Positions 4,762 to 9,530 of a stretch of 64,000 bases of DNA are shown piece by piece. The DNA is from a virus (Duplodnaviria > Heunggongvirae > Uroviricota > Caudoviricetes): IMG/VR virus record IMGVR_UViG_3300042554_002914. The stretch is one strand, 5' to 3'. The notes below the pieces were generated by a model that was not told the origin of the DNA, searched no databases, and saw only the letters and a list, made by a program, of their open reading frames with translations. A program made the translations under genes and the position numbers. Every line of letters starts with the position of its first letter. The first letter of the stretch is position 1.

Positions 4762-7700
4762 TCAGGACAAGATGTTGGTGATCATAGCGCCAGAACCGAT
4801 AAGACCAGATGCACCGAGGCCAACCAAGTTAACCACACGTTCGATGGTGATTTCAGCACGCACGACACGGCGTTCGCGAATGTAGTACTCCAATTTGTTA
4901 TCGTAAAGGCTCTTTATCCTCTACATCTTTGTATTTCTACAAAGTTCAGACTATATCTTTGCCTTACATCCTTATGTAAGACATTAGGCGCTCGTGGAGT
5001 TTTCATCTGTTCTAGATTACTAACTCTAGTCGTTGAACGTTCGTTTTCTCCCGAAAACGCTTCGCTGCTGATTGCCATGGTTTGAAGTTCAAACGTTAGG
5101 GTCCCAGCAATTCACCTAATTTCTTTTTATGTCAGACCCCAGTAGTTAAGGACGGACAGCGGGTGTTCCTGTGAGTTGATCATTTTTGTTAGCGTAAAGG
5201 TTATTTATCCTTCACTTCTTTACATTTCTGCAAAGATCAGACTATATCTTCTTCCTGAAATTTCTTATCAATCCGGTAACATGACTATCAGGTAGATTTA
5301 AGTGTCGTGCGAACTTGCGAATTGCTGGTTTACCCAGCTCTACCCAAAGTTCAAACAATTCATCAAACCTAGACCATAACTCTTTTCTCGATCTGGGGTT
5401 ATTTATTCCCCTTACCTTTAGAGACAAGGTTTTCGAGATTTTCAGTTTATGCTCTTCAGTCATTTTTCTACCAGTCCAGGGATGATTTGACTTATCCTTG
5501 AAATGATTTTTATGCCAGTCACTGTTTTTTCTTTTAGCTTCTTCTGAGCTTCCTAATTTGGGGGAAATTAAACTAATCTCCCTTGAACCTAGCCCCCATT
5601 GTTTTGAACTTTTCCAAATTGCCCACCATAATTTTTTATTATGGGGTTGGGATAAACTTAAAAGTAAATGGGCTATGTAGTGTTCTCTCCGGGTCAGCAT
5701 TACTAGGTTTGATACTTCATCATTCCCTCCACAACAAATAGGAATAATGTGATGTTTTTCAAGCCCATTTTTGCTTCCCCTTCGTTTGGGGATTGGCCGA
5801 AGTAAAAGTAAACGTGATGTGATAAGATTCCAATACCACTTTTCCCATTTATTAAGAAAGTGACATTCTATCAGGAGTGGGGCACTCGTGGATGGGTTAT
5901 TATTTTCGGTATTCACCATCTAGTCGTTGAACCTTTTGACTACAACTCTATTATAGCATAGAGTCCGAAATAGTCAACTTGGCTGCTGATTACCATAGCT
6001 TTCAAACTTTCGTTTGAAGCCGTAGGCTTCCCAGCAATTCACCCCATTGATCTGCGGATCAGGCAGATAATTTGACGTTACCGTCAAACCACGCATTCAA
6101 CTCGTTTAAAAGAAACGATGTTATTAACATACGTGTAACTGAAGGCCGGAGTCGCAGCATTAGCACCACCCGCAGGCATGATCGAATCAGAAGGGCCGTT
6201 GGGGCTGTAGAACAGGAGGATGCCATTGGCGGGGAAGACAGGCTGCAAGGAGCCGTCGTTGGCCAAATAACGCCCTTCAGCTACGCGCAGGCCACGCTCA
6301 AGACCGAAGTAGCGAGCGATGACATCTGTGTCGATGCTATTGGCGGAGGTGTACTTGATACGATCAAGGATCGCTTCGTTGGTCAGCAAGAGGTCGAAAA
6401 CCGAAGTTCCAAGAACAGCGGAGTTCGGACGAATGCCGATCTGGTTGGCAACAGCACGCTTCAGGGTCAGGATGTCCTCAATGGGATTAGAGGTTGCACC
6501 AGACCATGCGGCAGGGCCAGTGGCTGTGCCATAAGCGGTGTTGAAGGCGGTCCAGGTTGTAAAACCAAGACCAGTTTGTGAGCCAGGAGTCCCATTGTAG
6601 GGCTCGTATGGATTGTAGCTGCCAGTCACTGAAACAGCTTGAGCAACGGTGTACTCGTAGCTGTTCATTCATTATGTTATCGCGAGGGCTCTTTATCCCT
6701 TGCTTCTGCATGTTTCTATGCAGTTCAGACTATATCATCGTTTTGTAAACAAAACGTCAGGCGCTCGTGTCAGCTTCATTACTGTTCTAGTAGTATGCTG
6801 TTAGTCGTTGAACGTTCCGTCAATCCCTTGACGGCTTCGCTGCTGATTACCATAGCATCAAACTTTCGTTTGAAACCGTAGGTTTCCCAGCAATTCACCC
6901 AATTTTCTAAATGAGATTAATCTCATAGGGCCAATGTGTTTAGCCTAGACATCGCGTTGCGAGTCTCGATGGCGCGTAGCATTTGTTAACTCAGCGGCTC
7001 TTTATCCACTGATTCATTACCTTGTCGTTGGTAATGTTCAGACTATATTATTGCCCCACTATGTACACGATTACTGTACTTTGTAAGACATTGGGCGCTC
7101 GTGTCAGCTTCATTACTGTTCTAGTAGTATGCTGTTAGTCGTTGAACGTTCCGTCAATCCCTTGACGGCTTCGCTGCTGATTGCCCACGCGGGGGTTCCA
7201 GCAATTCACCCAATTTATAGTGGACCTACGCTGCGATCGAAATCGTTCGTAAAAAATAATCCACTTGTGCAGGACCTTCTCCTGCGTTTTCGATTCAATA
7301 ATGTTATCGCAAAGATTTTATTCTATGCTTCTTTACATTTCTGTAAAGTTCAGACTATATCTTCACCCCTGTTTTTCTTTCTTAGCTTAGCCATATGCTC
7401 ACGGGCAATCTGCCTATGGGTTTCAGACTTTTCTTTATCCGCCCAGTACTTTTTGGCGGACTCACTTCTCTTTTCCTTTTCCTCTTCAGTTTGAACCCTT
7501 CCTCTATTAGCTTCGTGAGCTTTTTTAAGTGTTTTTTCGGGCAGGGATTTACCCATCTTGGTTTTACTAAGTCTTTCTCGCATTTGCTTGGACTTAGGTC
7601 TTCCTTTCTCGGCTGCCCCCGGGGCAATACCGAATGAGGTCTTTTGTAGGGAAGTAGCTAAAATAGATGTACGTGGTCGGTAGGTAATGGCGCCTTCTCC

Positions 7701-9530
7701 GCATTTAACTCCCAACATCCTTCTAACTGCATACCAGTGTTTTACTGAGTTAGCACCTTTCGCAAGGAGGACATGGGCTATGAAGTGTTCTCGGATTGTT
7801 AGTTTTACTCTGTTTCCTTTGGAGTTATCCCCACCGTCACACTTAGGTATGATGTGATGGACGTGGTATCCCCTTTCCTTGGAGATTCCTCTATACTTCC
7901 TGGAGGAGCAGAGTTCGTGGTACCATTTTAACCATTTGTTAGGGTGCTGGGCGCTCGTGGATGGGTTATTATTTTCGGTATTCACCATCTAGTCGTTGAA
8001 CCTTTTGACTACAACTCTATTATAGCATAGAGTCCGAAATAGTCAACTTGGCTGCTGATTGCCTTGTGTTTCAGAGAAGTCACTCCTGAAACCGTCAGGG
8101 TTCCCAGCAATTCACCCAGTTTTTCTATCAGTTTTTCAACTGACGGAGGCTATCGATCTAACCTCTTCAGGCAATTCCCAAGCCACTACTTCTTGTTCAA
8201 GAGCGTAGGGCTCAGAGTCGTAACGGCTCTGTACATACGGAATGTTAGTCCCGTAAGCACGGCGGAAGTCGTTAATAGCAAATTGTTCCTTCAATTATGT
8301 TATCGCAGGGGCTCTTTATCCCCCACTTCTCTTTGTTTCCAAAGAGTTCAGACTATATCATCGTTTTGTAAACAAAACGTCAGGCGCTCGTGGAGTTTTC
8401 ATCTGTTCTAGATTACTAACTCTAGTCGTTGAACGTTCCGTCAATCCCTTGACGGCTTCGCTGCTGATTACCATAGCATCAAACTTTCGTTTGAAGCCGT
8501 AGGCTTCCCAGCAATTCACCCAATTTTTCATAACCCCTCACGGAGTTAAGCGGCATATGGAATACCGAAGCGCAGGATACGTCCTGCACGAGTTGGCGTG
8601 TCTACCACCGGTGCTATGAATAATATACAAAACTTAACGTTTTGCTCTGCATGTTTCCATGCAGTTTAGACTATATCATCATCTTTGCCTAAGCAAAGAG
8701 TCGGGCGCTCGTGGAAAGATTATTCTTGGGTCAGTCACTTTCTAGTCGTTGAACCTTCTTACTTCACTCTTATTATAGCAACAAGAGACCCGAAGTAAAC
8801 TTGGCTGCTGATTGCCTCTTTTGCGTAGCAAAAGTAAGGTGTCCCAGCAGTTCACCCGATTATTCGACAGGGGTCACCCCCTGAAGGAACCTCATTGATT
8901 CGCAATGTTGGTAGACGGTAGCATGAAACCTTGCGCGAGGGTGGTGAGACATTTGTTAACGTAGAGGCTCTTTATTCCCTACCTCTCTTTGTTTCCAAAG
9001 AGTTCAGACTATATCATCGTTTTGTAAACAAAACGCCCGGCGCTCGTGGAGTTTTCATCTGTTCTAGATTACTAACTCTAGTCGTTGAACCTTCCTTTTC
9101 TCCCGAAAAGGCTTGGCTGCTGATTACCATAGCTTTCAAACTTTCGTTTGAAGCCGTAGGCTTCCCAGCAATTCACCGGATTTTCTTTGTTAAAAACAAA
9201 GCCACTCCTTTAAATGGGCAATATGTTATCGCAAAGGCTCTTTATCCCTTGCTTCTACATGTTTCCATGTAGGCCAGACTATATCATCATCCTATAACTC
9301 CCATGCTGAGGAGTCAAGGAGCTGGGCGCTCGTGGAGTTTTCATCTGTTCTAGATTACTAACTCTAGTCGTTGAACGTTCCGTCAATCCCTTGACGGCTT
9401 CGCTGCTGATTGCCTCTTTTGCATAGCAAAAGTAAGGTGTCCCAGCAATTCACCCAGTTTTCTGCCATCATTAAAATGACAGGGACCCTAATTAATCCAC
9501 ACCTGCGTAGGTCTGTTGTAGATTCATCAT
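4762..9530 (-). CDS. Major capsid protein, 351 aa, 10 exons: 9530-9495, 9218-9214, 8949-8898, 8620-8564, 8291-8161, 7295-7259, 6979-6942, 6669-6131, 5180-5149, 4890-4762
   Basis: Exons sum to 1056 nt in one stop-free frame MMNLQQTYAGVDPILTTLAQGFMLPSTNIANFIAPVVDTPTRAGRILRFGKEQF...NPIEDILTLKRAVANQIGIRPNSAVLG...GSGAMITNILS*; VDPILT and G.RPN motifs and position after protease/decoration genes fit an HK97-fold MCP. Confidence 0.9.
4891..5148 (-). mobile_element. Group I intron 9 of MCP gene (258 nt, ORF-less)
   Basis: P GAATTGCTGGG, Q AATCAGCAG, R TTCAACGACTA, S AAGATATAGTC; 5' exon ends in U, intron ends in G. Confidence 0.9.
5242..5919 (-). CDS. Intron-encoded HNH homing endonuclease with NUMOD3-like tail
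   Basis: HHIIPICCGG...NLVMLTRREHYIAH motif; HPWTGRKMTEEHKLKIS repeat. Confidence 0.9.
   Translation of the reverse strand: MVNTENNNPSTSAPLLIECHFLNKWEKWYWNLITSRLLLLRPIPKRRGSKNGLEKHHIIPICCGGNDEVSNLVMLTRREHYIAHLLLSLSQPHNKKLWWAIWKSSKQWGLGSREISLISPKLGSSEEAKRKNSDWHKNHFKDKSNHPWTGRKMTEEHKLKISKTLSLKVRGINNPRSRKELWSRFDELFELWVELGKPAIRKFARHLNLPDSHVTGLIRNFRKKI
5950..5977 (-). promoter_or_regulatory. Sigma70-type promoter inside intron 8, upstream of HNH ORF
   Basis: TTGACT-N16-TATAAT with extended -10 TG, about 30 nt before ATG 5919. Confidence 0.7.
6670..6941 (-). mobile_element. Group I intron 7 of MCP gene (272 nt, ORF-less)
   Basis: P/Q/R/S; IGS GGCC pairs with exon GGCU; CAUU pairs with 3' exon AAUG; terminal G. 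Confidence 0.9.
6980..7258 (-). mobile_element. Group I intron 6 of MCP gene (279 nt, ORF-less)
   Basis: P/Q/R/S; IGS GUCCAC pairs with GUGGAU; GCGUAG pairs with 3' exon CUACGC; terminal G. Confidence 0.92.
7350..7988 (-). CDS. Intron-encoded HNH homing endonuclease with NUMOD3-like repeats
   Basis: HHIIPKCDGG...NRVKLTIREHFIAH motif; KGRPKSKQMRERLS and MGKSLPEKTLKK repeats. Confidence 0.9.
   Translation of the reverse strand: MVNTENNNPSTSAQHPNKWLKWYHELCSSRKYRGISKERGYHVHHIIPKCDGGDNSKGNRVKLTIREHFIAHVLLAKGANSVKHWYAVRRMLGVKCGEGAITYRPRTSILATSLQKTSFGIAPGAAEKGRPKSKQMRERLSKTKMGKSLPEKTLKKAHEANRGRVQTEEEKEKRSESAKKYWADKEKSETHRQIAREHMAKLRKKNRGEDIV
8019..8046 (-). promoter_or_regulatory. Sigma70-type promoter inside intron 5, upstream of HNH ORF
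   Basis: Identical to the intron 8 copy: TTGACT-N16-TATAAT. Confidence 0.7.
8292..8563 (-). mobile_element. Group I intron 4 of MCP gene (272 nt, ORF-less)
   Basis: P/Q/R/S; IGS GCCG pairs with CGGU; terminal G. Confidence 0.9.
8621..8897 (-). mobile_element. Group I intron 3 of MCP gene (277 nt, ORF-less, apparent terminal A)
   Basis: P/Q/R/S; IGS GUUC pairs with GAAU; AUGAG pairs with 3' exon UUCAU; frame requires ...ATATTA|TTC. Confidence 0.85.
8950..9213 (-). mobile_element. Group I intron 2 of MCP gene (264 nt, ORF-less)
   Basis: P/Q/R/S; IGS GUGG pairs with CCAU of the micro-exon; terminal G. Confidence 0.9.
9219..9494 (-). mobile_element. Group I intron 1 of MCP gene (276 nt, ORF-less)
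   Basis: P/Q/R/S; IGS GUCC pairs with GGAU; begins with in-frame TAA; terminal G. Confidence 0.9.

Follow-up and report, generated by a model that had tools for sequence, protein, structure and literature searches.

How do introns that stand at different sites of a single gene come to carry near-identical blocks in different combinations, while their guide-bearing ends differ from one intron to the next? The question is raised by the major capsid gene of a lake phage, contained in a 64,000-nucleotide (nt) stretch of viral DNA (IMG/VR record IMGVR_UViG_3300042554_002914), the whole of which we call the window. This gene has 10 exons and nine related group I introns (i1 to i9), and 78% of its length is intron. 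We consider it very probable that the capsid introns swap peripheral hairpins between non-allelic copies while the guides stay bound to their sites. Such swapping with fixed guides had been claimed from the letters alone (the sequence-only reading), and it is supported by conflict between the trees of the different domains, by swaps at the same insertion site in related phages, and by donor copies elsewhere in the gene. The question put to the nine introns was whether they need more than one tree with REPLACEMENTS.

The mosaic is seen within the window itself. Blocks were located by exact-match search on the minus strand, and the introns were cut at five invariant core segments of 10-15 nt (GGTGAATTGCTGG, AATCAGCAGC.AAG, AAGGTTCAACGACTA, CACGAGCGCC and GATATAGTCTGA), which leaves six variable segments: P1/P2, P5, P6, the P7.1/P7.2 insert (P7.x), P8 and the P9 tail. 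The sequence-only reading had set the limits of its blocks at conserved cores, and these five segments do bound them; the span that it gave, 4891-9494, runs from the last base of i9 to the first base of i1. Its blocks were all recovered in the introns to which it had assigned them. P5 carries CAAACGAAAGTTTG in i2, i4, i7 and i8 and, as a distinct group, CTTTTGCTAYGCAAAAG in i1 and i3. P6 carries CCGTCAAGGGATTGACGG in i1, i4, i6 and i7, TTTTCGGGAGAAAA in i2 and i9, and a promoter-type sequence (TTGACT-16 nt-TATAAT) in i5 and i8. The 31-nt post-R block in P7.x is common to i1, i2, i4 and i9 (four exact copies against 0.00 expected from 100 shuffles), with a second allele in i6 and i7 and a third in i5 and i8, and the P8 hairpin CGTTTTGTTTACAAAACG is found in i2, i4 and i7. 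The nine P1/P2 regions, said to have unique P1 and internal guide ends, are mutually different. Two refinements can be added: i3 has its own, related promoter-type P6 (TTTACT-16-TATAAT), and the P6 of i9, close to that of i2, differs from it by compensatory changes in the stem. Exact runs common to two introns reach 87 nt in i1 and i4, 73 nt in i4 and i7, 89 nt in i6 and i7, and 107 nt in i5 and i8.

The elements that bear these modules are predicted to be self-splicing, paralogous group I introns of subgroup IA. Eight of them match RF00028 with 55.7-97.4 bits (cut-off 50), and the ninth, i8, falls just below with 47.2 bits; all matches fall within 4927-9518 on the minus strand, and the rest of the window has no further RF00028 match. 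With the junctions defined by homology, every intron is preceded by a U that pairs with a G of the internal guide in P1, the P1 pairs being, in order, GGAU/GUCC, CCAU/GUGG, GAAU/GUUC, CGGU/GCCG, GAGGU/GCCUC, GUGGAU/GUCCAC, GGCU/GGCC, CACGU/GCGUG and UCCU/GGGG. Eight of the nine introns end in TG, that is, with a terminal omega G; the end of i3 is ambiguous. The subgroup IA layout is present in all nine, with a P7.1/P7.2 insert of 30-33 nt between the 5′ strand of P7 and the 3′ strand of P3, which folds as an outer stem of 4-5 base pairs (bp) and an inner stem of 4 bp. A conserved hairpin with a GAUAAAGAG-type loop, together with GAUAACA, lies past the end of the Rfam model in eight of the nine introns, i3 being the exception.

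The decisive evidence of reticulation comes from relatives. IMG/VR holds at least 234 relatives of the capsid gene, of which 80 loci were examined; 38 contigs yielded 170 members of the intron family, and a capsid gene has between 0 and 14 of them. The largest array, of 14 family introns, is in a complete 279-kb relative (G001, loci L030/L028; capsid gene at C1:72235-77911). Insertion sites (w1 to w9 for those of the window) were assigned by the guide/P2 region and agree with exon order. Single-linkage clustering gave one label, x1, to two true sites (after codon 3, and w3) that have a P1-P2 unit in common, so that the site-based statistics are slightly conservative.

The comparison with related phage genomes had been proposed by the sequence-only reading, and it reveals single modules replaced wholesale at orthologous sites where guide and P2 are nearly unchanged. 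Between the window and the four relatives closest to it, exon identity is 97-100%. At orthologous sites, 0-4 of 40 nt are changed in the guide/P2 region, whereas individual modules diverge on an all-or-none basis, by 20-60%. At w6, ten of the changes that separate the window from the 14-intron relative are packed into 16 nt of P6, and the remaining 257 nt have a single one; at w4, the differences between the same two are confined to P6 and P9; and at w1, the difference from L066 is essentially P7.x alone, plus single changes in P5 and P8. The clusters of differences are confined to single modules, and the flanks are identical through the invariant islands. Donors for the replacing alleles are present in the same gene. 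For 96 of 99 same-site differences, at least one allele recurs, with no more than one edit, elsewhere among the sites of that genome, and for 63 of the 99 both alleles do. Identical modules of 25-33 nt at different sites mark the introns as chimeras formed between non-allelic copies, and five of the nine module combinations of the window recur at the same site in relatives.

Reassortment is equally apparent across the family. The table of P6 by P7.x alleles holds 18 complete four-gamete (2x2) sets. In the class of introns that lack an open reading frame (ORF), 11 of the 12 cells of a 4x3 table are filled, and no association of P6 with P7.x is detectable (Cramer's V 0.26, p=0.35), only a 12-nt core standing between the two hairpins. 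Six four-gamete sets persist when the count is restricted to the 34 genotypes seen base-for-base in at least two metagenomes.

The shuffling is graded. P6 and P7.x reassort freely (Cramer's V with site 0.71 and 0.78), and P5 and P8 are strongly linked to site (0.86 and 1.0). One reason lies in the distal part of P3, where the triplet that follows core D pairs with bases that immediately precede core A and are specific to the intron. Of 96 distinct introns, 93 have this triplet completely paired (mean 2.96 of 3 pairs, against 2.32+-0.04 with shuffled partners), and P3 covaries accordingly. The common P8 hairpin, whose boundary falls just after this P3′ triplet, is preceded by GGG, TGA or CGA, each complementary to the 5′ strand of its own intron. 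The alleles of a module are isostructural, and hence interchangeable parts: the short P6 alleles are all a 7-bp stem with a four-base loop (GGGA in nearly all), and the P7.x alleles of the ORF-less class (class I) retain an AGAAC loop on stems that covary.

A second class of introns carries an endonuclease. The HNH ORFs of i5 and i8 lie in P8 and match phrog_655, 'homing endonuclease', with E=3e-24 and 3e-26, respectively; their Pfam HNH scores of 16.5-17.6 bits are below the cut-off of 21.4, and the endonuclease assignment is a prediction. The long P6 of this class holds a predicted, near-consensus sigma-70-like promoter (TTGACT-16-TATAAT, with an extended -10) that matches at 11 of 12 positions in i5 and 10 of 12 in i3, and the long-P6 promoters are the best such matches in the region. 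The start codon and the first 13 codons of the endonuclease are within the P7.x module and core D and are identical in i5 and i8; the remainder of the two proteins is at best 50% identical. Ribozyme helices in these two introns would thus double as promoter and N-terminal coding sequence, the ORF beginning in the module next to the promoter-bearing P6. A long P6 is present in 47 of 48 ORF-bearing introns, and the P7.x class follows the length class of P6 without exception. Relatives differ in whether they have all of this at sites w5, w6 and w8, and the guide is unchanged between them. The promoter-bearing P6, the start-codon P7.x and the HNH ORF travel as one cassette, and i3, to judge from its modules, is an ORF-less derivative of the promoter-type class.

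Some observations weigh against exchange between non-allelic introns, and they are best considered with the explanations that they favour. One of them is general. The invariant islands, at 10-15 nt, are short for classical homologous recombination; exchange probably also uses already-shared neighbouring modules, or template switching. A further one is that genome-specific homogenization is not significant against a site-stratified null (P6, p=0.066; P5, 0.33; P7.x, 0.18), and for this reason we do not claim intragenomic homogenization. This result favours the view that recombination is essentially allelic, with co-infecting phages reshuffling old polymorphisms and with the sharing between sites going back to the original duplications of whole introns. 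In keeping with that view, modules are still associated with site (Cramer's V 0.71-1.0), and whole 5′ units do duplicate to new sites with a common GAAT target. However, a few base-identical P6 and P7.x alleles are polymorphic at many sites, which needs either repeated independent insertions or transfer between sites, and single-hairpin tracts bounded by cores are found at sites that have no other site-specific variation. We therefore regard essentially allelic recombination as unlikely, although it deserves to be taken seriously. Swapping between non-allelic introns may itself take place within one genome or between co-infecting genomes, both of which are compatible with the data.

The duplication of 5′ units is illustrated in L035, L038 and L040, in which an identical P1-P2 unit (guide GGTTCC plus P2 hairpin) stands twice in one capsid gene, once following ATGATGAAT and once following ATTGCGAAT. 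Each of these sites has GAAT at its end, and this suggests that an intron spread to a second site offering the same 4-nt P1 target.

Might there have been no exchange at all, but descent along a single tree, with hairpins acquired from outside sources or diverging fast in some lineages? By inspection, the P5, P6 and P7.x states of the nine window introns, taken as unordered, can indeed be accommodated on a single tree that has an i4-like intron at its centre and allows modules to be replaced whole; since the window states alone are compatible with one tree, further tests were run. The sequence-only reading had proposed per-domain trees and a recombination test on the nine introns, and both go against a single tree. 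A statistic of the pairwise homoplasy index (PHI) type was 0.394, against a permutation null of 0.566+-0.013 (p<=0.0005; 139 informative columns). In approximately unbiased (AU) tests, each domain rejects nearly all of the maximum-likelihood trees of the other domains (p mostly <0.01; log-likelihood differences, deltaL, of 8-266), and the concatenated tree is rejected by P5 (deltaL 61), P8 (p 0.001), P1P2 (0.008) and P9 (0.047) and accepted only by P6 and P7.x. The AU p-values come from alignments of 33-93 columns, where the placement of unlike alleles against one another is arbitrary, and so we take them as supporting only, beside the evidence from relatives. That evidence is hard to reconcile with simple descent: the replacing alleles are not novel (96 of the 99 cases, as above), complete 2x2 combinations are widespread, and ten differences in 16 nt beside more than 250 identical bases, as at w6, are not clock-like. 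Descent along one tree without exchange is, in our opinion, very improbable.

Least probable of all is that the mosaic is an artefact of short-read assembly in which the modules of near-identical introns were mixed: window introns do share exact runs of 87-107 nt, eight of the nine have no base-for-base copy elsewhere (only i3, from P2 to P9, is reproduced), and one 2195-nt contig (L060) has exons in the wrong order, the last part of exon 8 being joined to exon 6 by an intron that combines a w8 guide and a w5-type interior, yet adjacent modules are linked across a core of 9-12 nt that a k-mer of about 31 or any read should span, a single mis-join between direct repeats would remove exons while all ten are present, ordered and in frame, the same 14-intron pattern was assembled from two metagenomes (L030, L031) and other patterns recur in four (L035, L038, L039, L042), and four-gamete violations remain with replicated genotypes, so that mis-assembly is an unlikely source. 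The L060 contig itself either arose in assembly, by a mis-join at modules that the introns have in common, or represents a genuine recombinant.

How might hairpins move between introns while the guides stay in place? We propose that a small set of isostructural peripheral hairpins (P5, P6, P7.1/7.2, P8 and P9) lies between invariant catalytic cores, and that homologous or short-homology recombination at the DNA level would copy one hairpin, or a run of them, from one intron to a non-allelic one, with junctions in the common cores or in neighbouring modules that are already shared. The route could be non-reciprocal conversion, or else template switching during break repair or replication. Events that replaced the P1 guide or broke the distal P3 pairs would block splicing of an essential gene and would be lost; thus, the guide/P2 end and the three P3′ nucleotides would remain fixed to their site as the interior turns mosaic. 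Were direct repeats to cross over reciprocally, essential exons would be deleted, and so the survivors would be non-crossover replacements, which is our basis for the term gene conversion. The second class would gain or lose its three-part cassette (P6 promoter; P7.x start codon and first 13 codons; P8 ORF body) as a block, and the HNH proteins might have a role in starting exchange. The chimeric introns would still splice, to judge from a gene that is essential and intact and from the retention of all helices.

It is tempting to go further, though we do so tentatively and with some doubt. The array could be a natural combinatorial library in which one-hairpin tracts, some of at most about 57 nt, outpace mutation and bring P6 and P7.1/7.2 to equilibrium across the 12-nt core. 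Such a process would perhaps be driven by HNH nicks, and it would perhaps be favoured as a means of reducing intron mispairing and exon skipping among up to 14 ribozymes.

A homology-dependent process would fit a further observation in G001. Its helicase gene has three more group I introns (L029, C1:19500-22500) that have no cores or modules in common with the capsid family and belong to a different lineage.

The interrupted gene is identified through exon 8, the largest open frame between introns, which by itself matches PF03864 (36.6 bits against a cut-off of 22.9). The nearest cultured relative, Synechococcus phage S-CBWM1, is 60% identical over this exon and has a capsid gene of 341 amino acids that is annotated as uninterrupted, without introns. 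With the junctions placed under the guidance of S-CBWM1, the predicted spliced ORF has 1056 nt and 351 amino acids with its reading frame restored, and it is colinear with the S-CBWM1 major capsid protein, with zero gaps at all nine junctions. Exon 2 comprises five bases (Table 1), and the other short exons are of 32-45 nt. This 5-nt exon (CCCAU) doubles as the 3′ exon of i1 and as the P1 substrate (CCAU/GUGG) of i2. The neighbouring genes encode a Mu-like portal, a Mu-like protease-type protein, a gp19-like tail tube protein and a baseplate J protein.

The limits of i3 can be drawn in two ways. Homology, P1 (GAAU/GUUC) and a 5-bp P10 place it at 8897-8621, with A as the last base; the alternative with a terminal G, 8904-8628, moves both sites 7 nt upstream and changes conserved NIANF to NIILF (two residues). 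An intron-less allele at this site (L034) reads GCGAAT/TTCATAGC, which fits the limits ending in A and conflicts with 8904/8628. The exon list uses the latter placement for the limits of exons 3 and 4. The i3 sequence is present at the same site in L030, L031, L036 and L063, apart from one or two changes in P5, and other intron types occupy the site in relatives.

Among cultured phages, megablast found no relative of the intron array, the sole match being 71 nt of the 3′ end of i9 (4889-4959; P7′-P9-tail), which are 88% identical to sequence lying within tape-measure genes in Clostridium perfringens phages (phiCP13O, phiCP34O and others). These tape-measure sequences are presumably related introns.

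Table 1. Position of the capsid gene, its exons, introns and intron modules in the window. Exon junctions are from the alignment with S-CBWM1.
Feature	Position	Strand	Description	Modules
Major capsid protein gene (Phage_cap_E, lambda-gpE-type)	4762..9530	minus	10 exons and 9 group I introns	
Exons 1-5	9530-9495, 9218-9214, 8949-8905, 8627-8564, 8291-8161	minus		
Exons 6-10	7295-7259, 6979-6942, 6669-6131, 5180-5149, 4890-4762	minus		
Exon 2	9214..9218	minus	5 nt (CCCAT); Pro plus two bases of Ile (VD-PI-LTT; S-CBWM1 likewise has PI)	
i1	9219..9494	minus	276 nt; RF00028 85.9 bits; P1 GGAU/GUCC with U.G pair; terminal G	P5 9412-9441 (as i3); P6 9377-9401 (as i4, i6, i7); P7.x 9334-9364 (as i2, i4, i9); P8 9285-9324 (own)
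i2	8950..9213	minus	264 nt; RF00028 97.4 bits	P5 9126-9164 (identical to i8); P6 9091-9115 (rare allele); P7.x 9048-9078 (as i1, i4, i9); P8 9015-9038 (hairpin as i4, i7)
i3	8621..8904, ends ambiguous	minus	RF00028 94.3 bits; ORF-less, promoter-type class	P6 8755-8803; P7.x 8713-8742
i4	8292..8563	minus	272 nt; RF00028 85.8 bits	P5 8470-8507; P6 8435-8459; P7.x 8392-8422; P8 8359-8382 (each common to at least two other introns)
i5	7296..8160	minus	865 nt; RF00028 56 bits, 3′ part 32.4 bits; HNH ORF 7350-7988 (predicted)	Promoter-type P6 8002-8050; P7.x 7959-7989 (contains the ATG of the ORF)
i6	6980..7258	minus	279 nt; RF00028 55.7 bits	Minimal P5 7183-7197 (own); P6 7148-7172 (as i1, i4, i7); P7.x 7103-7135 (as i7); P8 7049-7093
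i7	6670..6941	minus	272 nt; RF00028 86.7 bits	P5 6849-6886; P6 6814-6838; P7.x 6769-6801; P8 6736-6759
i8	5181..6130	minus	950 nt; RF00028 47.2 bits; 633-nt insert in P8; HNH ORF 5242-5919 (predicted)	P5 5992-6030 (identical to i2); promoter-type P6 5933-5981 and P7.x 5890-5920 (both identical to i5)
i9	4891..5148	minus	258 nt; RF00028 92.7 bits	P5 5074-5103 (own); P6 5039-5063 (stem variant of i2 type); P7.x 4996-5026 (as i1, i2, i4)
Promoter-like elements in P6	8019-8046 (i5), 5950-5977 (i8), 8772-8799 (i3)	minus	Sigma-70-like, extended -10	

Group I ribozymes are the textbook example of modular RNA, and interchangeable peripheral domains are known mostly from engineered chimeras. The capsid introns record, with unusual clarity, the modular recombination of ribozymes in nature, which is of relevance to specialists in RNA and in mobile elements. 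They amount to a natural experiment in which dozens of combinations of P5, P6, P7.1/7.2, P8 and P9 are placed on one core in an essential gene, where failure is lethal. The distinction between parts that reassort freely (P6 and P7.x) and parts tied to the site (P1/P2, distal P3 and P8) offers testable rules for ribozyme design, as well as rules for the multiplication and homogenization of introns inside one gene. The array also documents the movement, between resident introns, of a homing-endonuclease expression cassette whose promoter and start codon are within ribozyme helices. A practical warning follows from the gene itself: gene callers will miss or shatter a capsid gene of this kind, and assemblers can mis-join it.

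In the literature searched, we encountered no case in which the modules of many tandem introns within a single phage gene reassort, and the nearest known systems each have part of this behaviour. The td, nrdB and sunY (nrdD) introns of phage T4 reportedly recombine to give chimeric, splicing-proficient introns, these inter-intron events being, it is said, rare laboratory products among three distant genes and mostly deletions or rearrangements, or pseudorevertants. The reported likeness to T4 is that non-allelic group IA phage introns recombine at common core elements; the T4 hybrids are said to be functional, and those of the window are predicted to be so. Unlike the events attributed to T4, those considered here concern up to 14 introns in one gene, consist of short internal replacements with the exons kept, and are standing variation across many wild phage genomes.

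Several related introns in one phage gene are likewise on record. The orf142 gene of Staphylococcus phage Twort is said to hold three group I introns, and the Jug jumbo phages are intron-rich, with a mean of 18.5 introns per genome (PMC12880540). In both cases, as here, related self-splicing introns stand in essential phage genes and HNH endonucleases are common. Those phages have at most a few introns per gene, in contrast to the far denser array of 9 (window) to 14 (G001) in a 1-kb coding sequence, where exons may be as small as 5-45 nt, and the reports on them describe no exchange of modules, unlike what is found in the capsid family.

A closer parallel in the pattern, if not in the setting, is the omega intron of yeast mitochondrial 21S rRNA, which together with its homing endonuclease gene (HEG) is a mosaic attributed to horizontal transfer along with gene conversion (Wu & Hao 2014, PMC4059233). 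There, too, the introns are mosaic with a significant PHI, HEG+ and HEG- states interconvert at one site, and the HEG turns over faster than the intron (PMC4059233). Omega, however, concerns one orthologous site in different species, whereas the capsid introns are paralogues at many sites of one gene, the units exchanged are ribozyme helices, and the guide region is demonstrably fixed.

Finally, homing by intron-encoded HNH endonucleases co-converts flanking sequence, as in the T4 and SPO1 families (PMC2988022). The capsid introns resemble such systems in that their HNH ORFs are in P8 and that close relatives differ at a given site (w5, w6 and w8) in having or lacking the HEG block. They differ in what is moved: in place of a whole intron homing into an empty site, only the intron interior (P6 promoter, P7.x and P8 ORF) enters an intron that is already resident.

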